Below, in pieces: positions 1,389 to 24,644 of a DNA stretch of 64,000 nucleotides. The first letter of the stretch is position 1, and every line of letters begins with the position of its first letter. The stretch covers positions 32,001-96,000 of the forward strand of contig CAVRCI010000012.1 in the NCBI GenBank assembly GCA_963719495.1, in the 5' to 3' direction. Source of the stretch: an uncultured Verrucomicrobiae bacterium. GTDB lineage: Bacteria; Verrucomicrobiota; Verrucomicrobiia; Chthoniobacterales; JAATET01. A program made the position numbers and the translations under genes. The notes below the pieces were generated by a model that saw only the letters and a list, made by a program, of their open reading frames with translations, ran no database searches and had not been told where the DNA came from.

Positions 1389-1398
1389 GCCGACGATT

Positions 1399-2121: not shown

Positions 2122-3158
2122 TTCACGAACAAATAATGCGAAACGATCCACTCGTTCCCGCCCCGAAACCCCCAAAGCTCCGCGCACGACATGTAAAACA
2201 CCCGCCAATAAGCCCGCCATTTTCCGACGTTCGCCTCGCCATAAACCTCCGCCAAAATTGGACGCACCTTCGCATCGTTCGCATCCATCTCCGCCAGCCA
2301 CGCCTCCGAGGTCCGCTGATAATGCGTCCCGCTCACCTGCCAATGCCGCGCGATTTTGAGATCCTCCTGGAAATAAAGCAGCAAGTCGTCCGAAGGCATC
2401 GTCCCTCCCTCGAAAAAATACCGCGTGATCCAGTCCGAAGGATCCGTCCCCTCGAAGTGGTAGGCAAACCGCACGTGCGTGAAAATGTGCACGAACAACT
2501 TCCCACCCGGCACCATCCACGAAGCCACCCGCCGCATCAGCTCCCGGTAATTCTTCATGTGCTCGAACATCTCGACGCTCACCACCCGGTCAAACTGACC
2601 CTCCTCCAGCGCGAGCTCGTTCATGTCGCAAGTGATCACCGTCACGTTCCCGAATCCCCGCTCCGCGCACACCGCCTCGATGTGCTCCCGCTGCGTGGCC
2701 GAATTCGACACCGCGGTAATGAGCAAAGTCGGATACTTCTCCGCCATCCACAAAGTCAGACTCCCCCACCCGCACCCAAGCTCCAAAATACGCTGACCCT
2801 CCACCAAGGCCCCAAGCTCCGCCCGCTCGCACGACAGCGCCAGCATCGCCTCCTCCGACTCCGCAAACGTCGTGTCCGGCTTCGGCCAATACCCCGAGCT
2901 GTATTTCATCCGAGGCCCCAGACACAATTTGAAGAACTCCGTCGGCACCTCGTAATGCTGCTCGTTGGCCGCCTCGGTCTTGATCGCAATCGGGCTCGTC
3001 TTCAGTTCATCGACAAAAGCCTGCAAAGCCCCCTGCTGAGCCTCGACCCCACCCCGGTCCTCCTCCTTCAGTTTCCTGGCAAGCAGGTTCCGAATCCCAA
3101 TCCGCACCACCGCATCCGGCACCAGCCCCTTAGCCAAAAGTTCATCAATCGAAATCAT
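2118..3158 (-). CDS. SAM-dependent methyltransferase, CFA-synthase/coclaurine N-methyltransferase-like
   Basis: [28 protein letters not shown] and [10 protein letters not shown] motifs. Confidence 0.85.
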
Positions 3159-3165
3159 AATTCAC

Positions 3166-3195
3166 ATTCGCGTCCATTCGCGTCCATTAGCGGTT
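3166..3195. repeat. Solo arm of the 10-nt-periodic repeat found around the GxxExxY gene (ATTCGCGTCCATTCGCGTCCATTAGCGGTT)
   Basis: Near-identical to 58647-58676 and 59097-59126; related copy at 22214-22251. Confidence 0.8.
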
Positions 3196-3211
3196 GACTG
3201 CACGAATCCCA

Positions 3212-4006
3212 TCAATCGCGCTTGGGGAACCAAGGCACGAACACGCTCGTCGTCCGCTGATACTCCCGATACTTGTCCCCGCGCGATTTGAGCGATTGCT
3301 CCTCCGCCGTCGGCACGCCCGTCACCTTCAACAGGAAATACAACATGATCGCCGGACAAAACGCCGAGATCCACCCGTCCTCCGTCCCCAAGGCAAACAC
3401 AAAATACCCGACCCACACCAGCCACTCGCAGAAATAATTCGGGTGCCGCGAATACCGCCACAACCCCGTCTGGCAAACCTCCCCCTTGTTCTCATCCTTC
3501 GAACGAAACTGATCCAACTGCCAATCCGCCACACTCTCCCCAACCATCGCGATCAACCAGATCGCCACCCCCGCCCACTCGAACGGCCCGATCACCGCAC
3601 CCTGATTTTGAGCCACGAACGCAAACGGCACCGTCAGCAAAGCCAGCAGCACCGCCTGCAGCTGAAAAAAACCAAAGAACATTAGCCACGGCCGCTCGGA
3701 GAATTGCTCCCGCAATGTCGCGTAGCGCCCATCCTCCTCCGGATGATGCTTGGCGACCCGCCGCCACAAATGCGTCCCCAGCCGCAAGCTCCACAACGAC
3801 ACCATCACCGCAATGAGGGTTTTCCGATCCTGCGCTCCGGTGCCCAACACCCAATACGCCCCGACCAACAACGTGAAACCCAACGACCACGCGACATCCA
3901 CGACGCTCGCGTTGTCGATCCGCTTCGCGAAAAGCCACGTCGCCACCATGAGAACCATCGCCAGCGCAAACCCGACGGTCATCAAAAACCAAAAATCCTC
4001 ACTCAT
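3212..4006 (-). CDS. DUF1295 / steroid 5-alpha-reductase-like membrane protein
   Basis: VDVAWS, EDGRY, ESVADWQL and GLWRYSRHPNYF motifs; multiple TM segments. Confidence 0.9.
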   Translation of the reverse strand: MSEDFWFLMTVGFALAMVLMVATWLFAKRIDNASVVDVAWSLGFTLLVGAYWVLGTGAQDRKTLIAVMVSLWSLRLGTHLWRRVAKHHPEEDGRYATLREQFSERPWLMFFGFFQLQAVLLALLTVPFAFVAQNQGAVIGPFEWAGVAIWLIAMVGESVADWQLDQFRSKDENKGEVCQTGLWRYSRHPNYFCEWLVWVGYFVFALGTEDGWISAFCPAIMLYFLLKVTGVPTAEEQSLKSRGDKYREYQRTTSVFVPWFPKRD

Positions 4007-5268
4007 GCCCTGACATCGTTTCCGCCCCCGCCGCCAATTTCATAAACCTCCGACGTAATCCCAAGATTATTCGGCCGCGTGTAGATCGCCTGCACCACCG
4101 AGATGTGCCGCGCCCCGAAAGCCGCCTCGCAATACCGCAAATAATACCGCCACTTCCGCAGGAACCGCTCGTCGAATCCCAGCGCCAACACCTCGTCCCG
4201 CGCCGCCTCGAACGCCTCCGCCCACAGCTTGAGCGTCTTCGCGTAGCAAAGCCCCATGTCCTCCCAATCGTAGAGATTCAGCCAGCCCGTCTTGTTGAAC
4301 GCCTCCGTCATCCGAGCCTGCGACACCAGCAGCGACCCCGGGAAAATGTGCTTCTGAATGAAATCCACCCCGTCCCTCAGAATTTTGAACTGCCGGTCCG
4401 GGCAAGTGATCATCTGCAATCCCATCATCCCCCGCGGCCGCAGCAGCCGACCGCAAGCCGCGACGAAGGTATCCAAATACGCGTCGCCCACGGCCTCGAT
4501 CATCTCGATCGACACGATCTTATCGAACTGACCCGTGATGTTCCGATAGTCCTCGAGCTTCACCGTCACCCGGTCCGCCAACCCCGCCGCCTCGATCCGC
4601 GCCGTCGCCTCGGCGAATTGCTCGTCCGAGATCGTCACCGTCGTCACCCGGCACCCGTACGTCCCCGCCGCGTGCAGGCTGAACCCCCCCCACCCGGTCC
4701 CGATCTCGAGCACCTCGTCGTCCGACCCAATTTGGAGTTTGCGGCAGAGCTGATCGTATTTCTTCGTCTGCGCGTCCTCCAACGATAGGTCCGCCGGATC
4801 GAAATAAGCGCTGGAATACGTCATCGTCGGATCCAGCCACAGCTTGAAAAACGCGTTGCTCAGATCGTAGTGCTCGCGAATGTTCCGCCGACTCGTTTTA
4901 AGGCTGTTCGGCCGACGTTTGTGCAACAGCCGGTTGTAGGCGTTCAGCAAACCGATCCCGACCCCCGCCCGGCCACCCTCCGTCCGCATCCCCGCGGTCG
5001 AATCCGCGTTCAGAATGAAGAACGCGATCACCAGCGCCAGATCCGGCGTGTCCCAATCGCCATCCACGTAAGCCTCCCCCAGCCCGATCGGCCCCGACAC
5101 CACGCACCTGCGAAAAAACGTCTCCCGCCGCACCTCGATCCGCGCGTCCAGGCCCGGATACAGCCCGCCGAACCGCAGCTCCTCGCCGTCCGGCAGCTCG
5201 AAAACCAACGTCCCACGAGTCAGCGACCCAAGGCTTTTGAGGACGAATTTCCGAAACAACGAATTCAT
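4003..5268 (-). CDS. cfa: Cyclopropane-fatty-acyl-phospholipid synthase family methyltransferase (UfaM-like)
   Basis: HYDLSN, MTYSSA, LEIGTGWG, SIEMIEAVG and IFPG motifs; ATG 5268 chosen. Confidence 0.88.
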   Translation of the reverse strand: MNSLFRKFVLKSLGSLTRGTLVFELPDGEELRFGGLYPGLDARIEVRRETFFRRCVVSGPIGLGEAYVDGDWDTPDLALVIAFFILNADSTAGMRTEGGRAGVGIGLLNAYNRLLHKRRPNSLKTSRRNIREHYDLSNAFFKLWLDPTMTYSSAYFDPADLSLEDAQTKKYDQLCRKLQIGSDDEVLEIGTGWGGFSLHAAGTYGCRVTTVTISDEQFAEATARIEAAGLADRVTVKLEDYRNITGQFDKIVSIEMIEAVGDAYLDTFVAACGRLLRPRGMMGLQMITCPDRQFKILRDGVDFIQKHIFPGSLLVSQARMTEAFNKTGWLNLYDWEDMGLCYAKTLKLWAEAFEAARDEVLALGFDERFLRKWRYYLRYCEAAFGARHISVVQAIYTRPNNLGITSEVYEIGGGGGNDVRA

Positions 5269-5320
5269 GACGACAGCCTTACGTCCGAACCCGAATTGGC
5301 GATGAATAAATTGTGGACCC

Positions 5321-6481
5321 TCACTCGCGGACAAACTGACTCTCGTCTCGCGGCACCTTTCCCGGGCGAATCGCCATGAGAAAGCGGACGATCCGCTCGG
5401 CCCCGTGAGGCGACCCGGCCCCGCGGCCGTTCTCCGACAGCGTCACCAATCCCGCGCAATCGTCCGCGATCAACTCCTCGACCTTGGGCCGGACCCCCGT
5501 CCGCTTTCGCACGAAAAATCCCGCACCCAGCCGTTTCAACAACTTCGCGTTCCCCGGCTCCTGGCCCGGCACCGCCTTCGTCACGATCATCGGCAGATTC
5601 GCCGCCAACGCCTCCTGCGTCGTCGCCCCCCCCGCCTTCGCCACCAGCAGATGACTCCGCGCAAAAAGCTCCGCGTGCCGCTTCGTCCAGCCCAGCACAT
5701 TCACCCGACCGCCGCGCCGCCGCATCTCCCGGCGCAGCGCCTTCAACAACTTCACGTCGAACGCCACCGTGATCGTGAGCTCGATCCCAGGAATGTCCGC
5801 CAGTTCCTTCGCGATCCAATCCGAATCCAGCCGACCCGAATTGATCATGTAAAGCACCCGCACGGCCTCACCCGCCCGCGGCGGAATGGACCGCCCAGCT
5901 TTCGCACATTCCACCGCAATGTCGGGATTGACCGCGAATCCCAGCGGCAGGATTTTCTCGTCCGGAATCCCCCGCGACCGGACCACGTCCGCCGTCATCC
6001 GGTTCGGCACCACGATCGCGTCACAAGCCGCGCCCGTCCAAACGGTGTTCACGGTGATCGAATCCGTCACCACGATGACGTTCGCGCAGTCCGGATAGGG
6101 CTCGAGCAGCCGGTAATATTCCAAAAAATGCGGAAAGATCGGGTAGGTCGACACCACCACGTCCGGCCGCTCCTCCGCCAACAACTCACGCAGCCGCTTT
6201 TTGAGATCCTGCATCACCCACAGACTGATCCGCGTGTGCCACGGTTGATCGATGATCAAAAAGTAAATCCCCCACACCCACGGCACGCAGCGAATGAGCC
6301 ACAGATAAAAACGCCGCGACCACGGATAAAGCTCATCCCCCGTCCGCTTGAGCGGATCGACCACCAACAGCTCGACCTCCTCGCCCTCGGCCCGCAACCG
6401 CTCGGTCACCCGCTTCAGCGCCGCCGAAGCACTGTGGTGCCCCTGCCCAAACCCAGCCGATAAAACGAGAATCTTCCTCAC
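5321..6481 (-). CDS. Second MGDG synthase/UgtP-like glycosyltransferase (GT28)
   Basis: SAGFGQGH, STYP, VVTD, KAGG and PGQEPGN motifs. Confidence 0.85.
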   Translation of the reverse strand: MRKILVLSAGFGQGHHSASAALKRVTERLRAEGEEVELLVVDPLKRTGDELYPWSRRFYLWLIRCVPWVWGIYFLIIDQPWHTRISLWVMQDLKKRLRELLAEERPDVVVSTYPIFPHFLEYYRLLEPYPDCANVIVVTDSITVNTVWTGAACDAIVVPNRMTADVVRSRGIPDEKILPLGFAVNPDIAVECAKAGRSIPPRAGEAVRVLYMINSGRLDSDWIAKELADIPGIELTITVAFDVKLLKALRREMRRRGGRVNVLGWTKRHAELFARSHLLVAKAGGATTQEALAANLPMIVTKAVPGQEPGNAKLLKRLGAGFFVRKRTGVRPKVEELIADDCAGLVTLSENGRGAGSPHGAERIVRFLMAIRPGKVPRDESQFVRE

Positions 6482-6537
6482 AGAAGTCCCACTAAACCCA
6501 CTCCCCCGCCACCTGACCAGCCCCCGCTCGCCATAAT

Positions 6538-6564
6538 CGTGGCATCGGCTTCCAGCCGATCACC
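6538..6564. repeat. REP-like hairpin (CGTGGCATCGGCTTCCAGCCGATCACC)
   Basis: Copy with one mismatch at 30075-30101. Confidence 0.75.
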
Positions 6565-6599
6565 AAACCCACGCGAAGCGCAAACTTCATTCCTCACCC

Positions 6600-7379
6600 C
6601 TACCGTCGCAAAGACTCGTGCGGATTATAAACCTCCCGCTGCAACTCCGGCTCCGCCTCCTTCCTCCGAAACGGCAAACCCTTCCACCACAGCTTCAGCG
6701 CCTCCCAGTGAATCCCCCCGATCACCTGTAGCGTCACGAACGGATACTTCACCGTCATCCAAATCAAATTCGAGGTCGTCAATTCCAACCGCTCTCCGGT
6801 CAGCGAAGTCACCAACTCCCGCTCATCCCCCCGCCAATCGTCGATCCAAACCCCCAACCGCTCACCCGGCACCGCGAACCGGAAATCAAACTCCAAATCC
6901 AAATCGGCAAACGGCGACACGTAAAAATGCTTCGTCACCCGCCGCTCCATCCGCCCCCCGCCAGCCGCCGGCACCAGATACAATTTCAGTTCCCGAAACG
7001 TATTCCCGACCTGAATCACCGACGCAAAAGCCAACCCACCCGCGTCGTAGCAGTAAAAAATCGTGACCGGATTGAAGATGTAGCCCACCACCCGAGGCAG
7101 CGTCAGCATCCGGATCCGATCCGGCCGCCGCGCCTCACCATTCTCCCGCAAAAACTCCTCCACCGTCCCCCGCAGACCCGCCCCGCCCAGCGAGTAATAA
7201 TCCGACTCCCGCAACGAATACAGATTCGGCTCGTTGAACCCAAACAGCGGCACCCGGTCCGTCACCTCCGCCAGCTCATCCAGATCGAGCCAGAACATGA
7301 AGATCCGATAACCAAACTCATGCCGCTTCGGCGCAAGCCGCCGGTGCATCACCGAACATTCGTAGAGGCACGATTCCAT
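6600..7379 (-). CDS. DUF1365 protein (UfaO-like)
   Basis: HRRLAPKRHEF, FNPVTIFYC, KHFYVSPF and IHWEALKLWWKG motifs. Confidence 0.9.
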   Translation of the reverse strand: MESCLYECSVMHRRLAPKRHEFGYRIFMFWLDLDELAEVTDRVPLFGFNEPNLYSLRESDYYSLGGAGLRGTVEEFLRENGEARRPDRIRMLTLPRVVGYIFNPVTIFYCYDAGGLAFASVIQVGNTFRELKLYLVPAAGGGRMERRVTKHFYVSPFADLDLEFDFRFAVPGERLGVWIDDWRGDERELVTSLTGERLELTTSNLIWMTVKYPFVTLQVIGGIHWEALKLWWKGLPFRRKEAEPELQREVYNPHESLRR

Positions 7380-7387
7380 CGCGCCGC

Positions 7388-8668
7388 TCAACCCACGTCG
7401 CCGACGCCCAGATGCTCCTTCACCGCACCGCACACCCGCACCGCCGACCAATAAGCATCCTCGTGGAACCCATACCGAAAGTAGCTCCCACAAAAATAAA
7501 CCCGCTGGTCCGGCGACCGCCGATTCAGTCCACCCAATTCCTTCTGCGCCGCCACCGCATCGAGCGTGAACGTCGGATGATCGTAGTCCGTTTCGTAAAG
7601 CACGCGCTTCTCCGGGACCAGCCCCTCCGCGTTGATCGAAACGAAGTAATTCACCTCCGGCGAAACGTTCTGCAACGCGTTCATCCAGTAATGAGTCGTC
7701 GCACGGGTCCCGCCATCCGCCGCCGCTTCGATCTTATAATTCCACGAAGCCCAGGCGATCCGCCGCTTAGGCATCACGCGCTCGTCCGTGTGCAAAATCG
7801 CGTGATTATGCTGATACCCAAACTCCCGCAAAAGCCGCAATTCGTCGGGCTCGGGATCACTCAGCAAAGCCAAAGCCTCGTCCGCGTGCGTGGCCACAAT
7901 CACCCGGTCGAACGCCTCCGCCGCCCCCCCCTCGACCCGCACCGTCACGCCATCCGCCGTCCGCTTGACCGCCACCACCTTCGAGTTCAATCGCGGCTCC
8001 GCCGTCCCGGCGATGATCCGTCGCACGTAGCTCAGCGAGCCTTTGCTAACGGTGAACCACGGATGATGCGTGTGAACCCCCAGAAAACCATGATTGTAAA
8101 AGAACCGGATCAGCATCCCGGCGGGAAATTCCAAAACATCCTCCGGCCGCGTCGACCAGACCGCCGAACTCATCGGAATGAGGTAGTGATTCAGCAAATC
8201 GCGACTGAACCCATACTCCGCCGCAAATTCCCGCACGCTCCCCCGCGGCTCGTTTTCGAGCGTGGCATTGGCGATCTCGAAGAATCGGGTGATCTCGCCC
8301 AACAACCGGTGAAACCGCGGCCGCGCGAGGTTCCGCCACTGCGCGAAAACCTTTCGCACGCTCATCCCATTGTATTCGAGATGATCCGGCCCGTGCTGGA
8401 CGCTGAACGACATCTGACTCGGCTCCGTCGGCACCCCCAACTCCTCGAAGAGTGCGCAGAGGTGTGGATAAGTCACGTGATTGAAGACAATGAACCCCGT
8501 GTCGATCGGCACATCCCGCCCGTCCTCGCGAACGACCACCGTATTCGAATGCCCCCCCGGCCGCCCCGCCTGCTCGAACAGCGTCACATCCGCAACGTCC
8601 CGCAAATTCCAAGCACACCCCAGCCCAGCCACGCCGGACCCGATCACCGCAATCCGTTCCCTAGTCAT
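7388..8668 (-). CDS. FAD-dependent oxidoreductase, amine-oxidase family (UfaD-like)
   Basis: VIGSGVAG, DTGFIVFN..TYP, WASWNY and GFHEDA motifs. Confidence 0.9.
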   Translation of the reverse strand: MTRERIAVIGSGVAGLGCAWNLRDVADVTLFEQAGRPGGHSNTVVVREDGRDVPIDTGFIVFNHVTYPHLCALFEELGVPTEPSQMSFSVQHGPDHLEYNGMSVRKVFAQWRNLARPRFHRLLGEITRFFEIANATLENEPRGSVREFAAEYGFSRDLLNHYLIPMSSAVWSTRPEDVLEFPAGMLIRFFYNHGFLGVHTHHPWFTVSKGSLSYVRRIIAGTAEPRLNSKVVAVKRTADGVTVRVEGGAAEAFDRVIVATHADEALALLSDPEPDELRLLREFGYQHNHAILHTDERVMPKRRIAWASWNYKIEAAADGGTRATTHYWMNALQNVSPEVNYFVSINAEGLVPEKRVLYETDYDHPTFTLDAVAAQKELGGLNRRSPDQRVYFCGSYFRYGFHEDAYWSAVRVCGAVKEHLGVGDVG

Positions 8669-8692
8669 GCGAAGCTATCCCCATTCCAAACC

Positions 8693-8726
8693 CTGTCATG
8701 CTGAGCGAAGCGAAGCATCTCTGGCT
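8693..8726. repeat. REP-like family C (CTGTCATGCTGAGCGAAGCGAAGCATCTCTGGCT)
   Basis: Copies at 24356-24389 (inverted partner 24421-24454), 56623-56656 and 61094-61126. Confidence 0.85.
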
Positions 8727-8737
8727 TACACTAAATC

Positions 8738-9700
8738 CTAAACCGAAGACCGCCGCCGAGCACTAGCTTCATCATAAGCCGAAACCGGCACTCCACGCAG
8801 ATCCCAAACCAACCCACAAGCCGCCAACCCCTTCAGCAAGTAATAAGAAATGTCGATCTCCCACCAATAAAACCCCTGCCGGGCCGAAGCTTGAAAGTGG
8901 TGGTGATTATTGTGCCAACCCTCGCCAAGCGTTATGAGCGCGAGAATCAACGAATTCCGACTCTCGTCGTCCGTCTCATACCGCTTGCTCCCCAGCGTGT
9001 GCGCAAACGAGTTCACCGCGCAAGTCCCGTGGAAGAGCACCGTCGTGCTGATGAAAAACCCCCACACCACCATCTGCCAGGCACCCGTCCCGAGACCAGG
9101 AGCCACCGCCGCCAGCAACAGACCCAGACCGGCCATGGCGGCAATCATCAACAGCGGTCCGATCAGATCGAAACGATTGAGAAAAACCAACTCCGGATAC
9201 TTCGCGAGATCGCGCACGACTTTGTAATTCGTCGGAAAATTCCGGCTACTCGTCAGCCACCCGATGTGCGACCAGGTGAATCCCTTCTTCACGGGCGAAT
9301 GCGCATCGTGCTCCTCGTCCGAATGCTTGTGGTGATGGCGATGCACCGCCGCCCACCAGAGCGGCCCGCGCTGCACGGCCGTCAGACCGATCAGAGCAAA
9401 GATAAACTGCCCAACCCGCGACGTCCGGTAAGCCCGGTGGCAAAAATACCGATGGTAAAATCCGGTAATCGCAAACATTCGCACCAAATAAAGCGCCGCG
9501 GCGACGCCGACCGCCGTCCAACTCCAACCCACCCAGATCACTCCAAGACACCCCACGTGCAGAATCACAAACGGAATGGCCCGCGACCATTCGAAGCGCT
9601 CGGGTTTTTCGGCGACCGCCTCGGCCCCCTCCGGAAAGTAATCGGAGTCGATCTGCTGAATGAAAGCGCGTCCCACGCGCCGCCACCACGCCGGGCGCAA
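8738..9700 (-). CDS. Membrane fatty acid (acyl-CoA, delta-9-like) desaturase
   Basis: Three His boxes HRYFCH, HRHHH and HNNHH; start uncertain (TTG 9700, or ATG 9769 overlapping the parB end). Confidence 0.9.
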   Translation of the reverse strand: MRPAWWRRVGRAFIQQIDSDYFPEGAEAVAEKPERFEWSRAIPFVILHVGCLGVIWVGWSWTAVGVAAALYLVRMFAITGFYHRYFCHRAYRTSRVGQFIFALIGLTAVQRGPLWWAAVHRHHHKHSDEEHDAHSPVKKGFTWSHIGWLTSSRNFPTNYKVVRDLAKYPELVFLNRFDLIGPLLMIAAMAGLGLLLAAVAPGLGTGAWQMVVWGFFISTTVLFHGTCAVNSFAHTLGSKRYETDDESRNSLILALITLGEGWHNNHHHFQASARQGFYWWEIDISYYLLKGLAACGLVWDLRGVPVSAYDEASARRRSSV

Positions 9701-9710
9701 GCCGGAATTC

Positions 9711-10607
9711 TCAGTCCTCGGACTCGATACCGATGGAGCTGAGGATGCGTTGGAGGTCGTCGTTGCCATAATATTCGATGGTGATGCTGCCTTGTTTTTC
9801 ACCATGATGGACTACGACGCGGGTCGCCAGCCGGTGTTGCAATAAATTCTGAACCCGCTGGACCGCCGGTGACAAACCCGGGGCCTCTTTCGCACGTTTC
9901 CGCTCGCCGCCGTTCGACCCCTGACCCGTCTTCGCCAGATGCGCGGCCGCGAGTTTCTCCGTCGCCCGCACCGATGCCGACTGCCGGATCACCATGTCCG
10001 CCAACAACTTCTGTTCGTCGTGCGTTTTCAGCGAAAGCAGCACCTTCGCGTGGCCGACCGAGACCTGCCCCTGCCGCACCATCACCTGCACGTCGGGATG
10101 CAGATCGAGCAACCTCATCGCGTTGGCCACCGACGCGCGGCTCTTCCCCACGCGCTTGGAGATCTCCTCCTGGGTCAGGCCGAACTCCCGGGACAACCGC
10201 GAATACGCCGAGGCTTCTTCGATCGGATTGAGATCCTCGCGCTGGAGATTCTCGATGAGCGCCAGCTCCAGAACTTCCTGGTCCGAGGCCTGCCGGACGA
10301 TCGCCGGAGCCTCCAGCACACCGACCTCCTGCGCCGCCCGCCACCGCCGCTCGCCCGCGATCAGTTCGTAAACGTCGCCCGCCTTCCGCACGATGAGCGG
10401 CTGAATGATCCCGCGTTCGCGGATCGACTCGACCAACTCCGTAAGCTGGTGCGGTCGGAATTCGTGCCGGGGCTGCAGCGGGCTCGGAATGATCTTCGTC
10501 AACGCGATCACCTGGATGCGCTCGCCATTGCTCGCGGACGGCTGGGGATCCGCAACCCGAGTATTGATGAGCGCGCCGAGTCCTTTTCCGAGCGCCTGCT
10601 TTGCCAT
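9711..10607 (-). CDS. parB: ParB/Spo0J chromosome partitioning protein
   Basis: LGKGLGALI N-terminus, GIIQPL, IAGERRWRA box, ENLQREDLNPIEEA and HTH. Confidence 0.95.
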   Translation of the reverse strand: MAKQALGKGLGALINTRVADPQPSASNGERIQVIALTKIIPSPLQPRHEFRPHQLTELVESIRERGIIQPLIVRKAGDVYELIAGERRWRAAQEVGVLEAPAIVRQASDQEVLELALIENLQREDLNPIEEASAYSRLSREFGLTQEEISKRVGKSRASVANAMRLLDLHPDVQVMVRQGQVSVGHAKVLLSLKTHDEQKLLADMVIRQSASVRATEKLAAAHLAKTGQGSNGGERKRAKEAPGLSPAVQRVQNLLQHRLATRVVVHHGEKQGSITIEYYGNDDLQRILSSIGIESED

Positions 10608-16926: not shown

Positions 16927-16980
16927 AGCGGGGAGCGCACGCGTCCCCGCGTGCGAGATGCGGCGTCCCGCCGCATCAAG

Positions 16981-17047
16981 CCCGGCAACCCGCGCCAGCG
17001 GGAGCCGCCCGCCCTCCACCAGTCACCAATCACCAATCACCAATCAC
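16981..17047. repeat. 28-bp repeat plus heptamer (TCACCAA)n tract
   Basis: 16981-17008 is identical to 53743-53770; CCTCCACCAGTCACCA(A/G)TCACCAATC recurs at about 56701-56727. Confidence 0.7.
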
Positions 17048-17070
17048 GCCGTAACCGGCCCCTCCACCAA

Positions 17071-19020
17071 TCACGCGACAAACTGCCGGTGCAAAATCTG
17101 CAAACACAACAAGTGGTTAAGCAAAGCATCCTTCCGCACCAGCGAAGCCGAGTCGCCATCCGCCCGATACCCGTCCAAAAACGCCCCAACCCGCCCCGCG
17201 TCGAACAACCCAGCCTCCCGCACGCTCCCCTCGTCCAGATACTTGTCGGTCAAAGCCCGCACCGCTTGCTGCTTTTTCACGTCGGTATGCGCCGGCGGAG
17301 CCATGAACGAAAACTTCTCCCGCTTATACAACACCTCCGGCAACACCCCCCGCACCGCCTCCCGCAGCACGTGCTTTTCGATGTTCCCCTTGATTCGCAA
17401 ATTCGGTGGCACGTGAACCGCCGCCTCCGCCACGTGGTGATCGAGAAACGCCGGTCGCGACTCCATCGAGTTCGCCATATCCACCCGGTCGCCGCCCCAG
17501 TTGAGAATCTGACTCTCCAGCATCGTCTTGCTCCACGTGTATTGCGACTTATCCAGCGGATGCCGCCCGCGCACCATCGACGGGTCGATTTCGCCCGCGA
17601 TCGCCGCCACCGGATCGTAAGCCCCGATCTCCTCGGCCGCGTCATCACTCAGCAAAGGCCGCGCGATCCCCAGCGTCGCGATCCAACTCTGAATCCATGC
17701 CGGCGTGAACCCGCACAAATCCTCCCAGGCTGGATGCGTCTCCGCCTGCTCGGAAAGCAAAGCCCCCTTGAAGATCGCGTTGAATTTCTCGAGCGCCGCC
17801 TCGTATTCCCGCCGCACGCTTGCCGGCTCGTCCGCCAGTCCGTGTTGAAACATGTCGCGCTTGAAAAACGCGTAGCCGCCGAAAAGCTCGTCCGCCCCCT
17901 CGCCCGTGATCACCGTCTTGTAGCCCGCGTCCCGCACGTGCTGGCTCATGCAATACTTCGCCACGCCCAGCGTGTTGTAGAACGACCGTTCCGTGTGCCA
18001 CACCGTCCGCTCGTAATTCTCGCCGTAAAGCTCCGCCGCCTGCAGCTTGATCACGTCGTGATCCGCCCCGACGCTCGCCGCCATCTCGCGCGCGATCACC
18101 GATTCATCGTAGTCGTCGCTGTCGAAGCTAATGGTAAACGCCTTCACCGGACTTTGCATCGCACCCGAAGCCATCCCGAGGATGCAACAGCTGTCGATGC
18201 CGCCCGAAAGATAACACCCCACCGGCACGTCCGCCTCGAGCCGATGCCCGACGGCCTCGACCAATTCCTTGCGAATCGTCGCCACGTGGTCCGCTTCCGA
18301 GCGCCCTGGGTCCCGCGCGTCCGCCTCCGGAAATTCCAGGTCCCAATACCGCCGCTCCTCCACGTCCAGCCGGTCGCCCCGCCGCTTCACGATCACCATG
18401 TGCCCCGGCTTCACGGCCTTGATGCCCTCGAACGCACTGGTCCCGAGCACCATCGTTTGCATCATCTGATTCAGCGCCGCCCGCCGATCCATCCGGCACG
18501 GAACGTCCGGATGCGCGAGCAGCACCTTGACCTCTGACCCAAAGTAAATCCCCTTCTCGGAAACGTGGTAAAACAAAGGCCGCACCCCGAAGCGATCCCG
18601 CACCAAGGCTAAACGATCCTCCTTCCGATCATACAGTGCGAAGGCAAATTCCCCCCGAATCTGCGGCATGAGATCCAGCCCATACTTGCGATACAACGGC
18701 ATCACCAACTCGCTGTCCGACTTCGTCACGAATCGCTCGCCCTCCGTCATCAGCGTCGACCGGATCCGCTTGTAATCGTAGAGCTCCCCGTTCATCACCA
18801 TCGACAAATCGTCGTCGCCGCTGGACAGCGGCTGACAACCCGTGTGCAGATCGACGATCGTCAACCGCGCGTGCCCCAGAGCCAAGCCCAGCTTGGGATC
18901 TACCTTCGTCCCGCGCCCATCCGGCCCACGGTGACGCTGCACGTCGATCATCCGGTTGAGGGCGCGTTCGTCGTCGGGCGCGAGGCCCGTCGGTTTGAAA
19001 AATCCGGCAATTCCGCACAT
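17071..19020 (-). CDS. asnB: Asparagine synthase (glutamine-hydrolysing)-like amidotransferase
   Basis: N-terminal MCGIAG (Ntn Cys), HRGPDG, RDRFGVRPL, LSGGIDS and TGEGADELFGGY motifs. Confidence 0.92.
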   Translation of the reverse strand: MCGIAGFFKPTGLAPDDERALNRMIDVQRHRGPDGRGTKVDPKLGLALGHARLTIVDLHTGCQPLSSGDDDLSMVMNGELYDYKRIRSTLMTEGERFVTKSDSELVMPLYRKYGLDLMPQIRGEFAFALYDRKEDRLALVRDRFGVRPLFYHVSEKGIYFGSEVKVLLAHPDVPCRMDRRAALNQMMQTMVLGTSAFEGIKAVKPGHMVIVKRRGDRLDVEERRYWDLEFPEADARDPGRSEADHVATIRKELVEAVGHRLEADVPVGCYLSGGIDSCCILGMASGAMQSPVKAFTISFDSDDYDESVIAREMAASVGADHDVIKLQAAELYGENYERTVWHTERSFYNTLGVAKYCMSQHVRDAGYKTVITGEGADELFGGYAFFKRDMFQHGLADEPASVRREYEAALEKFNAIFKGALLSEQAETHPAWEDLCGFTPAWIQSWIATLGIARPLLSDDAAEEIGAYDPVAAIAGEIDPSMVRGRHPLDKSQYTWSKTMLESQILNWGGDRVDMANSMESRPAFLDHHVAEAAVHVPPNLRIKGNIEKHVLREAVRGVLPEVLYKREKFSFMAPPAHTDVKKQQAVRALTDKYLDEGSVREAGLFDAGRVGAFLDGYRADGDSASLVRKDALLNHLLCLQILHRQFVA

Positions 19021-19027
19021 AAGAAGA

Positions 19028-20116
19028 TTAGCTAAGTGGAAGATTCTCGGGCAGCCGATTGCACCTGCCCATCACCGCCGTCAGCAGCGCCTGACGAATG
19101 AAGACCGCCCCGTGCGCCTGCGACCAGTAGAGATTGTGCGGCGTCCGATCCAGACTCGTGTCCAGCTCCTCGAGCCTCGCAAGCGGATGCAGAATGACCG
19201 CGCCATCCTTGAGTTCGCTGTCCGCGTCGAGGCGGAACCTGGAGTCCAGATTTTTGTAACCATCGCCGACCTGCACGATGGAGTTCATGTAGATCACGTC
19301 CAATTCCGGAAGGCAGTTTTCGATGTCGTTCGTGATCTCGGACTCGAAACTCGCCGCCGCGATGTCGTTCGCCAGCTCCTCGCCGAACGGATCGGCCATC
19401 TCCGAAACGAACGTGATCTTTTCGATGTGTTCCTGAAAGAGCAACGCCATGTGAACGAAACTCTTCACCGCCCGCATGCTCCCCGGCGTCCCGAGCACCC
19501 CAATCCGGAGCCGCTCCGAGACCGGCTCGCGCTTGGCTAATTCAGGACGCCACTTCAGCAGCGCATACCAATCCGCCATGGCCTGAGTCGGGTGGTCGCC
19601 CGTGCCGTTTCCGGCGTTGATCAACGGCAGGCGCAGATTTTTCATGATCCGCTCCGGCGCGTCCGCTTCGGTGTGCCGCATGATCACGCAATCGCCGTAG
19701 GCGTTGAACATTTCGCCGATGTCCTCGAGCGATTCCCCCTTCTTCACTCCCGTCGTCTTCCCGTCCGGGATGCTAATGATTCGCCCGTCGAGCCGCAGCA
19801 CCGCGCTCTCGAACGACAACCGCGTCCGCGTGCTCGCCTCGAAGAACGCCGTGATCACGATGTATTTGTCCAACGGCCGGTGTGGCCCAATTTCAATCGC
19901 CTCCAACACCGAGGCCAGCTTGCAAAGCTCGACGATCTCCGTCCGCGAGAATTGCTTCACCGACAGCACGCTGCGAAACGCCATCCCCTGCAGCACCTCG
20001 AGGTCGATGTTCGTCCGCCGAAAGAGCGAATTTGCCTCCGGGTGCAAAGACAGCGACTCCGGCGGCGGCGCGAGCACCTCGAGCAACCGATTCGGTTTGA
20101 ACGTCGGCGCGTCCAT
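19028..20116 (-). CDS. ATCase/OTCase-family carbamoyltransferase with non-canonical acceptor site
   Basis: FFEASTRT, KGES, INAGNG..HPTQ and HPLAR present; YMNSIVQ where ATCase has YMTRVQKER. Confidence 0.85.
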   Translation of the reverse strand: MDAPTFKPNRLLEVLAPPPESLSLHPEANSLFRRTNIDLEVLQGMAFRSVLSVKQFSRTEIVELCKLASVLEAIEIGPHRPLDKYIVITAFFEASTRTRLSFESAVLRLDGRIISIPDGKTTGVKKGESLEDIGEMFNAYGDCVIMRHTEADAPERIMKNLRLPLINAGNGTGDHPTQAMADWYALLKWRPELAKREPVSERLRIGVLGTPGSMRAVKSFVHMALLFQEHIEKITFVSEMADPFGEELANDIAAASFESEITNDIENCLPELDVIYMNSIVQVGDGYKNLDSRFRLDADSELKDGAVILHPLARLEELDTSLDRTPHNLYWSQAHGAVFIRQALLTAVMGRCNRLPENLPLS

Positions 20117-20235
20117 CACCAAACGCGTCCTTTCCGGTGATCCCGCCAGATCATCGCGATCAGCGTCACCGCGCCAGCCGACGTCCAGATCAGCGCGGTC
20201 CAAATGAGAATTTCGACGAAGGTGAGTGCAAACAT
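20116..20235 (-). CDS. 39-aa single-TM small protein (not in ORF track)
   Basis: MFALTFVEILIWTALIWTSAGAVTLIAMIWRDHRKGRVW; starts 4 nt after the transporter stop, and its TGA overlaps the next ATG (TGATG). Confidence 0.7.
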   Translation of the reverse strand: MFALTFVEILIWTALIWTSAGAVTLIAMIWRDHRKGRVW

Positions 20236-20239
20236 GGCG

Positions 20240-21661
20240 TTAGTGTTCGTTGAGGGTCTTCCAATCGAATGGGTCGGGTCGCAAAGCCGTCGTCACGAGC
20301 ACCGTCACCATCGACACCGCCGCGCTGATCAGCGACGCCGAGAACCAACCAATCTGATAATACGCGATCAACCCGATCACCGACCCCAGCAACATCGCCG
20401 CCGTCGCACCCGCTCGCGACGTCCGCGGAAAATACAACCCGGACACGATTGGCCAGATCGTGCTCGCGACCAGCGGCCCCGAAAGAAAGAGCACCGTAAT
20501 GAGATCGCCCACGTTCGGCAGACAGATCCCCCAAGTCAGCACCCCCAACCCCACGATCACCCAGGTCGAAGCTCGGCGCACCGTCGCCTCGCTGGCCGCC
20601 GGATTGAACGCCTTCCGGTAAATGTCCTCCGTCACCAGATCCGCCGTCGCCGCCAGCAGGCTGTCGATGCTCGAAGCCAGCGAACAGAACAGCACGATGA
20701 ACACCAGGATCGAACCCACTCCCCCCAGCACCTGACTCGCCACCAGCGGCCCGACCATGTCCGGGTCCGCCGCGTTGATCCCCAACGGCCCCGCGCAAAG
20801 CCCGATGAACCCCGCCGCAATCGGAATCGGGAACCACAGCACCCCCGAAATAAGAAACGCCTTCAGCGGCACCCCCTTCCGCATGGCAAAGGCCCGACTC
20901 CACCACACGTTGTTGTGAAAGACCTCGCCGAACCCGAAGAACAGATTGTTGAACAGCGCCAGCAGCGCCACCGGCATGAATACATGCAGCAAAGTCGGCT
21001 GATCCGCCGAGATCGACGTGTAAACCGCCTCGACGTCGATCCGCATGAGCACGACCACACCGACCACCACGATCCCGACGAGAATGATGACGCTCTGAAT
21101 AAAATCCGTCCCGATCACCGCGTAAAGCCCGCCGAAGAGCGTGTAGGTAATGCAAACGAACAAAATCGCCGACATCCCGTATTCGTAAGGAATCCCCGAC
21201 AGCGCCTGCAGAAATTTCCCGCCTGCCATTGCCATGCTCACCAGCCACGCCATCGAATAAACCAGCGAAATCACCAAAAACAGCCCCCAGGCCACCCGCC
21301 CGAACCGCAGCCGCACGAAGTCACCGCTCGTGTAGCCATTCGGCATCAAGTCGCGAATCCTGTGCGCCATCGGCGCAAACAGAAACAACCCGAAACTCGC
21401 CGTCGAATAAGCCAGCATCCCCCAGATCCCCATCTTCATCGCGAAGACCGGCGCGAGCATCACCGTGCTCGACGTCACCCACGTCGCCATCGCCGTCGCC
21501 GCCGAGAGAGCCAACCCGACGTTCCGCCCCGCGAGCATGAACCCATCCAGATTGACCGCCTTCTTCCCCCAATAAACCCCCAACCCGATCCAGATCACGC
21601 CAAAGACCGCGAGCAGCAGATAGCCCATTCCAGGATCGAGCACGGAGCTTTGCAAATTCAT
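20240..21661 (-). CDS. Sodium:solute symporter family transporter (DUR3/urea-transporter-like)
   Basis: FMLAGRNVG, ATWVT, GGLYAVIGTDFIQ and SSIDSLL motifs; many TM segments; ATG 21661 coupled to the upstream stop. Confidence 0.9.
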   Translation of the reverse strand: MNLQSSVLDPGMGYLLLAVFGVIWIGLGVYWGKKAVNLDGFMLAGRNVGLALSAATAMATWVTSSTVMLAPVFAMKMGIWGMLAYSTASFGLFLFAPMAHRIRDLMPNGYTSGDFVRLRFGRVAWGLFLVISLVYSMAWLVSMAMAGGKFLQALSGIPYEYGMSAILFVCITYTLFGGLYAVIGTDFIQSVIILVGIVVVGVVVLMRIDVEAVYTSISADQPTLLHVFMPVALLALFNNLFFGFGEVFHNNVWWSRAFAMRKGVPLKAFLISGVLWFPIPIAAGFIGLCAGPLGINAADPDMVGPLVASQVLGGVGSILVFIVLFCSLASSIDSLLAATADLVTEDIYRKAFNPAASEATVRRASTWVIVGLGVLTWGICLPNVGDLITVLFLSGPLVASTIWPIVSGLYFPRTSRAGATAAMLLGSVIGLIAYYQIGWFSASLISAAVSMVTVLVTTALRPDPFDWKTLNEH

Positions 21662-22140
21662 CAGACGAGTTCCTCCCCGGCCTGCTGCCGCCGAAATCCC
21701 CTCACCACGGTCGACACCGTCAGCCCAAACACCGTCAATCCGACGCCCAGGAGCGTCCAAACCTTCCAAGCCGCTGGGTATTCCACGAGCACGTCCAGCG
21801 TCTCCGACCAAGGACCCCCAACCGCCCGCACCCGGAACGAATGCGTCCCATCCGGCAGCCCCGAAGCAAAGAACGCCAAATCCGGCCCCACGTAGCGAAC
21901 CTTCTCACCTTCAACGACTTCGTAATCCACCGCCCCCGCGACCGCCAACCAATTGAGCAGAACGTGGCCCTCCCCCGCGACCACCGGCTCCGTCATTTCC
22001 CAGCGCGGAGCCTCCAGAGCCAACGCCGAACCAATCAGCAAAAACGCAACAAAAACTCGAATGGGGATCGAAAAAGCGATGCTCCCACCGTGAAAAACGA
22101 ACTCCCGAACATCAAGCAAAAGCCGGGAGACAGGGAGCAC
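21661..22140 (-). CDS. Small exported, membrane-anchored protein with FN3-like domain
   Basis: Signal-like FVAFLLIGSALA, LNW..V.GAVDYEV, SGLPDGTHSFRVRAVGGPWS, C-terminal TM helix; start uncertain. Confidence 0.65.
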   Translation of the reverse strand: MLPVSRLLLDVREFVFHGGSIAFSIPIRVFVAFLLIGSALALEAPRWEMTEPVVAGEGHVLLNWLAVAGAVDYEVVEGEKVRYVGPDLAFFASGLPDGTHSFRVRAVGGPWSETLDVLVEYPAAWKVWTLLGVGLTVFGLTVSTVVRGFRRQQAGEELV

Positions 22141-22295
22141 ACCCGTCCCGGGTGTGAGCTTCGGCGTCCCCGCCGAAGCCTCGTTCCAAAACGCGAAGCG
22201 TCACTTCCCCCTTCACCCGCATCCATTCGCGTCCATTCGCGTGTTTAGCGGGTCCCTCACCCGATTTGCCAACCTCCCCGCCCACCTGTTAACCA

Positions 22296-23585
22296 TTGGC
22301 GGTGCCACCCGAAAACACCCGCGCCACCCCGCTCGCCGACCTCCGCGTCGACCCGAAGCGCCTCCGCGAAGACCTCCGCACCCTCTCCGCCTTCGGTTAC
22401 AACGACACCGACCACGGCATCTACCGCATGGCGTTCACCGAGGCCGACCTCGCCGCCCGCCATTGGCTGCAGGACGAAATGCGCGCCCTCGGCATGGCCG
22501 TCCGCATCGACGGAGCCGCCAACGTCATCGGCCACTGGCCGCCCCACGACACCCGGCCCGCCGTTATCCTCGGTTCCCACACCGACACCGTCCCCTGCGG
22601 CGGCCACCTCGACGGCAACCTCGGCGTCCTCTGCGGCCTCGAAGCCGCCCGCGTCCTCATCGAAGCCGACGTCCAGCTCGACCGCCCCATCGAAGTCATC
22701 TCCTTCTCCGACGAAGAGGGTCGTTTCGGCGGCATGCTCGGATCCGAAGCCTTCACCGGTCGCCTCACCCCCGAGCGCCTCCTCGGAGCCATCGATTTAA
22801 CCGGCACCCGCCTCGCCGACGCGATGATCGCTCGCGGCCTCGAACCCACCGCCGCCCTCGACGCCCGCCGCGAACCCTCCAGTATCCACGCCTTCCTCGA
22901 ACTCCACATCGAGCAAGGCCCCGTCCTCGACGCCGCCCGCAAGCAGCTCGGCATCGTCGACCAGATCACCGGCCTCTTCCGCTGGTCCGCCCGCCTCTTC
23001 GGCAAACCCAACCACGCCGGCACCACCCCCATGAACCTCCGCCAGGACGCCTTTCTGGGCCTGGCCGAATTCGCCAACGAAATCCCTCGCGTCCTCGAGG
23101 AAAACGGCAGCGACCGCAGCCGCGCCACCATCGGCAACGTCGAACTCACCCCCGGCGCCGCGAACACCATCCCGGGCTGCGCGGAATTCTCGCTCGACGT
23201 CCGCGACACCGACCCCGACACCCTCGAAGAGCTCTCCCGCGCCTTCCGCAAGGCCCTCTCCGCCATCGCCCGCCGTCACGACCTCCGCTTCGAATTCGAC
23301 GAAGTCTCCCGCATCGCCCCCCGGCCCTGCGCCCCCGCCGTCGTCGACGCCCTCCGCCGCCAAGCCGAGCGGCTCGAGACCACCTTCGAAGTCATGCCCA
23401 GCGGCGCCGCCCACGATTCCCAGCTTCTCGCCGAGATTTGTCCCGTCGGCATGATCTTCGTCCCCAGCCGCGACGGCCAGAGCCACTCGCCCGCCGAATG
23501 GACCGCCTGGCAGGACGTCGAAGCCGGTGCCAACGTCCTCCTCCAAACCGCACTCGAACTCACCCGCACTGAAATCGAACGATGA
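22296..23585 (+). CDS. Zn-dependent N-carbamoyl-L-amino acid amidohydrolase / allantoate amidohydrolase family (M20)
   Basis: GSHTDTV, DGNLG, DEEG, ELHIEQGP, HAGTTPM and SGAAHD motifs. Confidence 0.92.
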   Translation: MAVPPENTRATPLADLRVDPKRLREDLRTLSAFGYNDTDHGIYRMAFTEADLAARHWLQDEMRALGMAVRIDGAANVIGHWPPHDTRPAVILGSHTDTVPCGGHLDGNLGVLCGLEAARVLIEADVQLDRPIEVISFSDEEGRFGGMLGSEAFTGRLTPERLLGAIDLTGTRLADAMIARGLEPTAALDARREPSSIHAFLELHIEQGPVLDAARKQLGIVDQITGLFRWSARLFGKPNHAGTTPMNLRQDAFLGLAEFANEIPRVLEENGSDRSRATIGNVELTPGAANTIPGCAEFSLDVRDTDPDTLEELSRAFRKALSAIARRHDLRFEFDEVSRIAPRPCAPAVVDALRRQAERLETTFEVMPSGAAHDSQLLAEICPVGMIFVPSRDGQSHSPAEWTAWQDVEAGANVLLQTALELTRTEIER

Positions 23586-24319
23586 AAATTACCGACGCCA
23601 CCGACCGCGATCCGCTCCTCGACCTCTACAAAAGCTCCCTCGGCGAGGAAAACCCAGCCCACCACTGGATGCTGGCCCGCCAGCAGACCGCGCTCCTTTG
23701 CATCGACATGCAATACCTCGACGCCGCCCGCGGCCACGGCATCTTCCGCGACGCCACCTCCTCCGGCGTCCCGCTCGAGGACCAGGAATACTACTTCTCC
23801 ACCCTCGAAGGCCGCGTCATCCCCCGCCTCCGCCGCCTCCAGGACACCTTCCGCCGCGCCGAACTCGAAGTCATCCACGTCCGCATCCAGGCCCTCACCG
23901 CCGACGGACGCGACCGTTCCAAGGGCCACAAACGCCTCGGCGTCCTCGCCGGCCCCGGCACCCGCGAAGCCGATTTCCTCGAAGCCGTCGCCCCCCAAGG
24001 CGACGAAATCGTCATCAACAAGACCGCCAGCGGCGTCTTCTCCGCCACGAACATCAATTTCGTCCTGAAAAATCTCGGCATTACCGCCGTCTACGTCGCC
24101 GGCGTCTACACCAACGAATGCGTGGAAACGACGATCCGCGACGCCTGCGACCTCGGCTACCTCGTCACCATGGTCGACGACTGCTGCACGACCGTGACCC
24201 CCGAACTCCAACGCGCCTCCATCGCCGTCCTCCGCGACCGCTACGCCCGCATCCTCTCCAGCGACGACGCCATCGCCGAGATCCAGTCCATCGAGGCGGA
24301 ACGGCAACCCGCCGCGTAA
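23582..24319 (+). CDS. Isochorismatase-family cysteine hydrolase
   Basis: Asp-Lys-Cys triad: IDMQ, INKTASG, GVYTNECVETT; ATGA overlap with the upstream gene. Confidence 0.9.
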   Translation: MKITDATDRDPLLDLYKSSLGEENPAHHWMLARQQTALLCIDMQYLDAARGHGIFRDATSSGVPLEDQEYYFSTLEGRVIPRLRRLQDTFRRAELEVIHVRIQALTADGRDRSKGHKRLGVLAGPGTREADFLEAVAPQGDEIVINKTASGVFSATNINFVLKNLGITAVYVAGVYTNECVETTIRDACDLGYLVTMVDDCCTTVTPELQRASIAVLRDRYARILSSDDAIAEIQSIEAERQPAA

Positions 24320-24355
24320 TCAGACCGAGCGAAGCAAAGCCATCCTCCAAAAAAA

Positions 24356-24454
24356 CTGTCATGTTGAGCGAAGCGAAGCATCTCTGGCTTCTCAGGCGTG
24401 ACGGCCCGCAACCAGAAACGAGCCAGAGATATTTCGCTCCGCTCAATATAACAG
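24356..24454. repeat. Inverted pair of REP family C (REPIN-like, possible terminator)
   Basis: 24356-24389 and 24421-24454 are imperfect reverse complements. Confidence 0.8.
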
Positions 24455-24644
24455 GTTTTGGAAAAAGGCCGTCTTCCCAACCAGGGTCAATCCTCTCCTC
24501 CACGCCTCACTTTCCAATCGACGCCGCCCTTCCTCCACCCAGCATCACCCCACCCCCCCGGAAAAGAGATTCACGCCCACGCCGCCTCGTGCGTATCCTT
24601 CGACAGATACCAGCAACCGCAAATTTTTACTTAAAAGCCATCCC

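Follow-up and report, generated by a model that had tools for sequence, protein, structure and literature searches.

A 64,000-nucleotide stretch of the genome of an uncultured Verrucomicrobiae bacterium (contig CAVRCI010000012.1; hereafter the window) carries, at 17071..24319, a carbamoyltransferase gene and an AsnB-like amidotransferase gene packed together with the genes of a sodium:solute symporter (SSS) family transporter, two small membrane proteins and two hydrolases. What would such a combination of genes make, and for what purpose? Our analyses indicated that the seven genes are a real, widespread and uncharacterised module. The reading we favor, with a probability of about 0.6, is that the module makes, recaptures and degrades an N-carbamoyl amino acid amide that serves as a compatible solute and nitrogen reserve. 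A pathway to make, import and degrade such a compound had been proposed in an earlier reading of this DNA made from its letters (the original prediction).

Layout and conservation of the gene block

The block of seven genes described in the original prediction was recovered in full, with all open reading frames (ORFs) confirmed at the following coordinates:

17071..19020, minus strand: AsnB-like glutamine-dependent amidotransferase, 649 amino acids (aa), with Pfam GATase and Asn_synthase domains
19028..20116, minus strand: carbamoyltransferase resembling aspartate carbamoyltransferase (ATCase), with a remodelled acceptor site by its motifs, 362 aa, of the marine "pseudo-ATCase" type
20116..20235, minus strand: single-helix membrane peptide, 39 aa, putative small transporter subunit (conserved with the transporter)
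20240..21661, minus strand: SSS family transporter (PF00474), nearest to DUR3 urea transporters, 473 aa
21661..22140, minus strand: FN3-like protein with a signal-peptide-like N-terminus, an FN3-like domain and a C-terminal membrane helix; start codon uncertain
22296..23585, plus strand: M20 carbamoylase (TIGR01879 passed)
23582..24319, plus strand: isochorismatase-family cysteine hydrolase (PF00857), 245 aa, putative amide hydrolase

Read along the minus strand, the order is FN3-like protein, transporter, 39-aa ORF, carbamoyltransferase and AsnB-like protein. The measured spacings confirmed both a tightly packed run of these five genes (-1, 4, -1 and 7 nt) and a divergent pair of hydrolase genes, which overlap each other by 4 nt and are separated from the minus-strand unit by a gap of 155 nt. 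The starts of the transferase and the transporter were placed at the ATG codons at 20116 and 21661, and not at longer TTG starts, because close homologues align from those ATGs. As the original prediction had remarked, no pyr genes lie nearby: none was seen in 54 ORFs of the window scanned with Pfam, a scan that took in part of its ORFs.

We compared 63 loci, every one picked for carrying the transferase, of which 31 were named GTDB records and 32 came from other genomes (36 further loci were fetched beyond the named set and four were dropped as identical contigs to named loci). Several of the loci are close kin and two are from one genome, and as kin are not independent, P-values were given no weight. 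The AsnB paralogue was present in 60 loci, the transporter in 58, the FN3-like protein in 56, the M20 enzyme in 46 and the cysteine hydrolase, or amidase, in 43. The complete set of seven genes occurred in 39 of the 63 loci, with many of the absences falling at contig ends, and 57 of the 58 loci that have the transporter adjacent to the transferase also contain the 39-aa peptide. The named loci cover nine phyla, across which the genes co-occur far beyond chance, so the expectation that the cluster would be conserved in other genomes was borne out. In one locus (L088:4517-5537), asnB is followed by genes of the creatininase family and of a SugE-like small exporter, a combination reminiscent of guanidine metabolism.

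An even sampling of the class of one gammaproteobacterial match (400 scored genomes) contained the transferase in 24 genomes, the transporter in 22 (21 common to both) and a close orthologue of the amidase in 25, including all 24 genomes with the transferase. The amidase count excludes three further matches at 40-42% that were judged distant, and the tallies include one unpublished genome (G301), which raises each of the three counts by one and on which nothing else here depends. The transporter lacked the synthesis genes in one of the 22 genomes and the amidase in one of 25, in both cases at a contig end. Of 401 genomes of the class to which the window belongs, 15 carried the transferase. Gene order, co-occurrence, the states of the motifs and the presence of separate housekeeping paralogues, here and below, were read directly from the genomes compared.

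Similar asnB/pyrB-like clusters in marine bacteria, without a demonstrated function, had been mentioned in the original prediction, and two publications contain them. The passages of Barba 2013 (PMC4016543) on Subgroup 3 describe a block in which an ATCase paralogue is accompanied by a Na+ symporter, an Asn-related gene and a HyuC-like N-carbamoyl-amino-acid amidohydrolase, in Rhodopirellula baltica, Nitrosococcus oceani, Synechococcus WH8102 and Kangiella. The pseudo-ATCases of those passages have the motifs STRT, HPTQ and HPLA, with AIA, AIS or SIA for RxQ, and no function is proposed or tested for them there. The module shares with that block HPLA, an S/A-I-A-type loop and the synteny of symporter, Asn gene and amidohydrolase, and on these motifs and neighbors it is very probably Barba's marine pseudo-ATCase block. 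The same passages call the Asn-related neighbor an asparaginase, whereas here it is asparagine-synthetase-like, and they do not mention the FN3 protein, the peptide or the cysteine hydrolase, all of which are present in the module. Table 1 of that paper prints HPLA under group 1, and its rows for groups 1 and 3 look swapped relative to the text; we took the labels as swapped because Shi et al. 2015 (PMC4581275) give H(T/S)LP for ureidoglycine carbamoyltransferase (UGTCase), a purine enzyme of group 1. The second publication, Doré et al. 2022 (10.1101/2022.08.17.504260), interprets asnB-pyrB2-pydC of Prochlorococcus and Synechococcus as an alternative pyrimidine pathway and nitrogen recycling. 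This cluster has the same gene names as the module and, compared by those names, is probably the same module; the sections that describe it contain no active-site analysis or solute hypothesis.

Active sites of the enzymes and the transporter

The transferase scored below every carbamoyltransferase cut-off (e.g., TIGR00670, 174 against 237; PRK00856, 170 against 263). The carbamoyl-phosphate motifs are kept and are invariant in the family alignments, namely S95-T98 (STRT), K126 (K84), R147 (R105) and H175-Q178 (HPTQ). All 59 full-length homologues have STRT, HPTQ and the equivalent of Arg167 (R215), and none has the aspartate-binding RxQ motif of the 240s loop. The loop instead reads N-S/A-I-A/V, with N278 in 59 of 59 and SIA or AIA in 42, the window copy being a variant (S279-I-V281); HPLP is changed to HPLA in 57 of 59. 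The residues that line the acceptor site, M214 and S/A-I-A/V, make it small and hydrophobic. An AlphaFold model of the transferase had a pLDDT of 87. With the lack of a carbamate kinase described below, the motifs suggest an anabolic enzyme, for which the acceptor would be a neutral or longer amino acid whose alpha-carboxylate is free.

Separate paralogues occur elsewhere in the genome. Its own pyrB, in which RIQ is intact, lies on contig C2 behind an ORF that by eye looks PyrR-like; contig C14 carries an ArgF-like gene and C13 a second AsnB gene. Three carbamoyltransferase genes each were found in this genome and in five others checked, and in a FastTree phylogeny the 59 transferases branched apart from the genome's own PyrB and ArgF, which were its only two outgroups. 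No arcC (carbamate kinase) was over the cut-off in the genome, and neither a carbamate kinase nor a dihydroorotase was seen in the 211 flanking ORFs scanned, out of 360 picked. Carbamate kinase is the companion of catabolic transcarbamylases, and its absence from the genome and the scanned neighbors argues against the phosphorolytic direction; on this ground phosphorolytic catabolism was rejected. Ureidoglycine carbamoyltransferase (Rxyl_2847) is, like the module transferase, derived from ATCase with a new acceptor. It is described, in the part of the literature that covers it, as catabolic, beside carbamate kinase and allantoinase and with H(T/S)LP, none of which the module has, and membership of the transferase in that family failed on its HPLA motif and on the lack of arcC.

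The AsnB-like protein passed TIGR01536 (416 over 267) and failed both AsnB PRK09431 (272 against 499) and AsnO TIGR03104 (300 against 570). Its homologues have the N-terminal Cys in 52 of 53 cases and the SGGxDS loop in 53 of 53, and its best structure match was a hydroxyamidotransferase. Amidation is likelier than ring closure because the glutaminase Cys and the ATP loop are conserved, and the paralogue would amidate a carboxylate of an N-carbamoyl amino acid.

Of the two hydrolases, the M20 enzyme passed TIGR01879 (366 over 204). Its best equivalog was the ErtE N-carbamyl-L-glutamate amidohydrolase (NF058540), for which it was below the cut-off (397 against 520), and its best structure match was an N-carbamoyl-L-amino acid hydrolase (E 3e-77). 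Residues H95, D106, E140-E141, H204, H240, N290 and R303, which we take to be metal and carboxylate ligands, are kept across 46 homologues. For the cysteine hydrolase, all 42 homologues compared keep D42, K147 and C180; the enzyme is far under the equivalog cut-offs (BiuH, 68 against 370; RutB, 57 against 378) and has only distant solved relatives. On these residues and families, the cysteine hydrolase would cleave the amide and the M20 enzyme would remove the carbamoyl group. The four enzymes thus pair off as carbamoylation with decarbamoylation and amidation with deamidation. A carboxylate-binding Arg is kept in both the transferase and the M20 enzyme (in the latter presumably, given our assumed residue roles), which fits an order of transferase then AsnB for synthesis and amidase then M20 for breakdown. 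In two Bacteroidia loci (L018:2757-5696 and L024:2641-5553), a protein of 970-979 aa with an interrupted M20 carbamoylase domain, divergent from the module, replaces both hydrolases; its first 380 residues are without an NCBIfam match.

The module works like the N-acetylglutaminylglutamine amide (NAGGN) system, in which asnO, ngg and an M42 peptidase provide an amino cap, amidation of a carboxylate by an AsnB paralogue and the system's own breakdown. It differs in having a carbamoyl and not an acetyl cap, a dedicated transporter and two other hydrolases. The module is not a member of the NAGGN system, as the AsnB-like protein is below the AsnO cut-off and no Ngg (TIGR03103) was over the cut-off in the genome.

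The nearest solved relative of the transporter was DUR3 (E 1e-31; next family, 2e-7). Of nine residues of the DUR3 pocket, as given in the pocket description of AtDUR3 in PMC11840088, four are identical (W93, T98, Y117 and W338), two are other aromatics (at Y315 and Y461) and three are reduced to Thr or Gly (W95 to Thr, Q124 to Gly and N305 to Gly), so that the W95/W338 dyad is only half kept. The Asp312/Glu402 proton pair is absent, D312 being Asn or Ser and E402 being Leu. Helix 8 has a conserved Ser-Ser that presumably resembles the Na2 site. An enlarged pocket of the DUR3 type fits a substituted urea, and we infer from these residues a sodium-coupled transporter of a larger ureido substrate. 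Plain urea uptake was rejected on the altered pocket together with the absence of a urease from the genome, where none was found. The original prediction had the symporter scavenge the product. An import role still fits, and scavenging by non-producers looks unlikely, as the transporter of the gammaproteobacterial sample occurs with synthesis genes in 21 of 22 genomes; this coupling looks like the recapture of a self-made product.

The transporter is about 230 residues shorter than AtDUR3 and has two predicted accessory subunits, an architecture that we did not find described. One is the FN3-like protein. FN3 matches of single members are few and weak (5 of 52; best E 0.0014), and the window protein itself has no Pfam hit; the family profile did match solved FN3 domains (FN3con, E 3e-5). 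A three-chain complex model gave the FN3 protein and the transporter a score of 0.84, compared to 0.01 for the best of three controls, with contacts agreeing at 88% or more and partner pLDDT values of 80-81; the peptide was without a score. Of 157 solved complexes 116 reached the mark, as did 2 of 215 mismatched pairs, rates that are only rough for these alignments and for three chains. The model supports the FN3 protein binding the symporter as a predicted accessory subunit. The other candidate is the 39-aa peptide, which has an invariant C-terminal Trp and, from its conservation, is a putative small transporter subunit. In one genome (G152), about 1 Mb separates the four enzyme genes from the FN3, transporter and peptide genes, which are still together, and in another (G115) the enzymes are present and the FN3, transporter and peptide genes were not found, which suggests that these three genes move as a unit. 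Three loci (L022:5045-5869, L026:5050-5823 and L030:5050-5823) have, directly upstream of the FN3 gene and in its orientation, a gene for a SAM-dependent methyltransferase of unknown family; the methyltransferase may modify the product of the module.

A compatible solute and the alternatives

Every substrate, direction and physiological role that we assign to the module is inferred. In the favored scheme, the transferase would first use carbamoyl phosphate to carbamoylate the alpha-amino group of an amino acid other than aspartate whose alpha-carboxylate is free, likeliest glutamine or glutamate. The AsnB paralogue would then amidate the carboxylate with ATP and glutamine-derived ammonia, giving an uncharged product. 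The predicted three-part, sodium-coupled, DUR3-like transporter would re-import this product or its ureido-acid precursor. For breakdown, the cysteine hydrolase would remove the amide, and the M20 enzyme would then remove the carbamoyl group to yield the amino acid, ammonia and CO2. The best candidate for the product, though at less than even odds, is N-carbamoyl-L-glutamine 1-amide, a solute described in 1991.

Evidence for a solute role came from the neighbors of the module in related loci. A MarR regulator was found in 15 of the 63 loci, scattered over several lineages, with 12 of one subtype (EctR/CosR-like) and three of another; the profile was built from 10 of the 15. The second subtype, distinct from the EctR/CosR-like one, is in the gammaproteobacterial loci L078, L079 and L082. 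Searching a plasmid collection with one regulator copy gave 39 relatives, of which six were opened and four were annotated (identities only 39-43%); three of the four annotated records have the relative beside ectABC or ProU and one does not. CosR is described, in the title of 10.1101/845297, as a repressor of compatible-solute systems. Solute genes adjoin the module, or lie within about 4 kb of it, in six loci: betaine methyltransferases in L021, L076 and L077, with BCCT (L021) or ProV, a sucrose synthase and MscS in L083, MscS in L082 and an MPG-phosphatase-family gene in L093. Regulator or solute neighbors thus occur in 18 of 63 loci, a count with no chance baseline behind it. In addition, mild salt shock of Synechococcus WH8102 raised SYNW2454 by +0.78 and SYNW2453 by +0.62 log2 (PMC2874817, additional file 10), the fourth and sixth of 82 salt-induced genes behind betaine methyltransferases (+0.87). 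SYNW2454, named "aspartate carbamoyltransferase", adjoins SYNW2453, named "asparagine synthetase", and from Barba's list and these gene names the two are apparent orthologues of the module genes.

Several points weigh against this reading of the module. Osmolyte neighbors are absent from 45 of the 63 loci. The M20 gene is on the transferase's strand in 27 of 46 loci, and co-transcription of the two would raise the problem of a futile cycle. The residues of the transferase do not single out glutamine. Genomes that could only take up or only degrade the compound are nearly absent (the single cases noted above), unlike the situation for betaine and ectoine. In the window's genome, the salt markers nqrA, otsA/ggpS and ngg were not found, and neither were a betaine methyltransferase, BCCT or a close copy of the EctR/CosR-like regulator. 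A marginal ectoine-synthase match, within a frame of 869 aa, was not counted as EctC. Because the genome lacks the tested salt markers, the module could here be the chief source of solute or a means of storing nitrogen. The passages of PMC3857566, PMC1224877 and PMC7824335 that mention N-carbamoyl-L-glutamine 1-amide call it minor and known from one organism, Ectothiorhodospira marismortui; a minor solute could be missed by routine nuclear magnetic resonance (NMR). No record named Ectothiorhodospira was among the 31 named loci or the 120 matches listed for either homologue search, which does not count as evidence of absence from that genus. NMR of the solute pool of R. baltica, which carries the block according to the passages of PMC4016543, listed sucrose, glutamate, trehalose and mannosylglucosylglycerate (MGG) only in the part of PMC3694870 that reports it. 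RB13301, a named member of the pseudo-ATCase group, is missing from the R. baltica stress-regulated gene lists of PMC2754498 that were available, and its neighbors RB13294 and RB13300 are in the salt-up sheet. The WH8102 shock also raised a nitrate transporter (+0.89), nirA (+0.59) and cyanate lyase (+0.42) in the tables of PMC2874817, so that induction of the module may reflect nitrogen demand. Lastly, according to the sections of Doré et al. on its distribution, the picocyanobacterial cluster tracks N- and P-depleted water. The original scheme of making, import and degradation is thus supported in part: the active-site residues fit it and the osmolyte context in relatives supports a solute role. 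The solutes reported from R. baltica and the nitrogen-linked occurrence of the picocyanobacterial cluster are at best neutral toward the candidate product and may count against it.

The nitrogen evidence suits an alternative in which an environmental compound, of ureido type or derived from pyrimidines, is brought in by the transporter as a source of nitrogen, which the enzymes would set free or reuse. Doré et al. interpret asnB-pyrB2-pydC in this manner and, in the same sections, place it in most Synechococcus of warm, depleted water. The WH8102 locus tags are near those of nitrate and molybdenum-cofactor genes, induced alongside, in the tables of PMC2874817. A DUR3-like transporter, two hydrolases that would release ammonia, and glnK-amtB about 2.5 kb from the module in L087 also fit this route. 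However, with RxQ lost from all homologues, aspartate binding by the transferase cannot be taken for granted, the scanned neighbors had neither a dihydroorotase nor a carbamate kinase, and the steadiest genes are those that consume ATP and glutamine (AsnB in 60 loci, against 46 and 43 for M20 and the amidase). In addition, one Bacteroidia genome had no amidase orthologue with the query used, the recurrent regulator resembles regulators of solute genes, and the Red Sea enrichment in Prochlorococcus, as far as the source describes it, fits salinity too. We consider this route unlikely.

A different private metabolite is about as improbable in our estimation. It could be a ureido-amide built on another amino acid or on an amine, or a hydantoin- or dihydropyrimidine-like ring closed by the AsnB paralogue, that acts as a signal, chaperone or precursor and not as a bulk osmolyte. 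The near-perfect coupling of transporter, hydrolase and synthesis genes suggests a compound that few outsiders use, and the R. baltica report of PMC3694870, in its solute-pool section, gives no such bulk solute. The small hydrophobic acceptor site fits as well, as do the AsnB relatives, which include cyclases, and the hydroxyamidotransferase that was the best structure match. The glutaminase Cys, present in 52 of 53 homologues, instead favors amidation over ring closure, and the repeated insertion of the module beside betaine, sucrose and MPG genes and an EctR/CosR-like regulator, in several unrelated lineages, weighs against such a metabolite. A role as redundant second copies of pyrB and asnB, making carbamoyl-aspartate and asparagine, as the database name "aspartate carbamoyltransferase" and the pass of TIGR01536 would have it, is very improbable and was rejected on the loss of RxQ, the low TIGR00670 score, the separate branch of the transferases and the normal pyrB, argF and second AsnB elsewhere in the genome.

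If the compatible-solute reading is true, genes would be assigned to an orphan compatible solute, and the carbamoyltransferase family would gain a new acceptor specificity. No assigned genes for N-carbamoyl-L-glutamine 1-amide were found in the literature searched, which held few subscription papers and was without the supplements of Barba or Fig. S8 and Dataset 6 of Doré. Thousands of PyrB and AsnB annotations would be corrected (one family member had 2498 proteins at E <= 1e-60 among 8000 scored). The metabolite would be an overlooked nitrogen-rich one, with four N per candidate molecule, in marine and saline bacteria including abundant Synechococcus. In its fullest form, the proposal is of biosynthesis, uptake and catabolism of N-carbamoyl-L-glutamine 1-amide in at least nine phyla, and probably in picocyanobacteria, with a new carbamoyltransferase and a three-subunit, FN3-capped symporter; in that form we would put it at rather less than even odds.

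Genomic setting of the block

The window's genome is 98.6% complete. The GC content of the cluster is close to that of the genome (63.2% vs. 63.0%), and recent horizontal arrival was rejected on this basis. Carriage by a virus or a plasmid was rejected as well, as the 30 viral matches were all at most 34% identical and the single match in the plasmid collection at E <= 1e-40 was 33% identical. A promoter and terminator scan of the cluster gave nothing above shuffles. A search of sequencing runs returned no RNA run among the matches listed, and one DNA run with 0.22 of the words.

Short intergenic repeats with many genomic copies are located at 16929-17068, 22130-22260 and 24330-24460, i.e., at both ends of the cluster and in the divergent gap. 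A frameshifted copy of the 5' part of the M20 gene (76-80% amino-acid and 68% nucleotide identity) was found elsewhere in the genome (G000:C9:53565-54078), adjoining an ORF that by eye resembles a REP-associated transposase. At lower coordinates in the window, the minus strand of 270-9805 carries a lipid cluster with a fatty acid desaturase, a flavin oxidoreductase, DUF1365, DUF1295, two cyclopropane-synthase-like methyltransferases and two MGDG-synthase-like genes.

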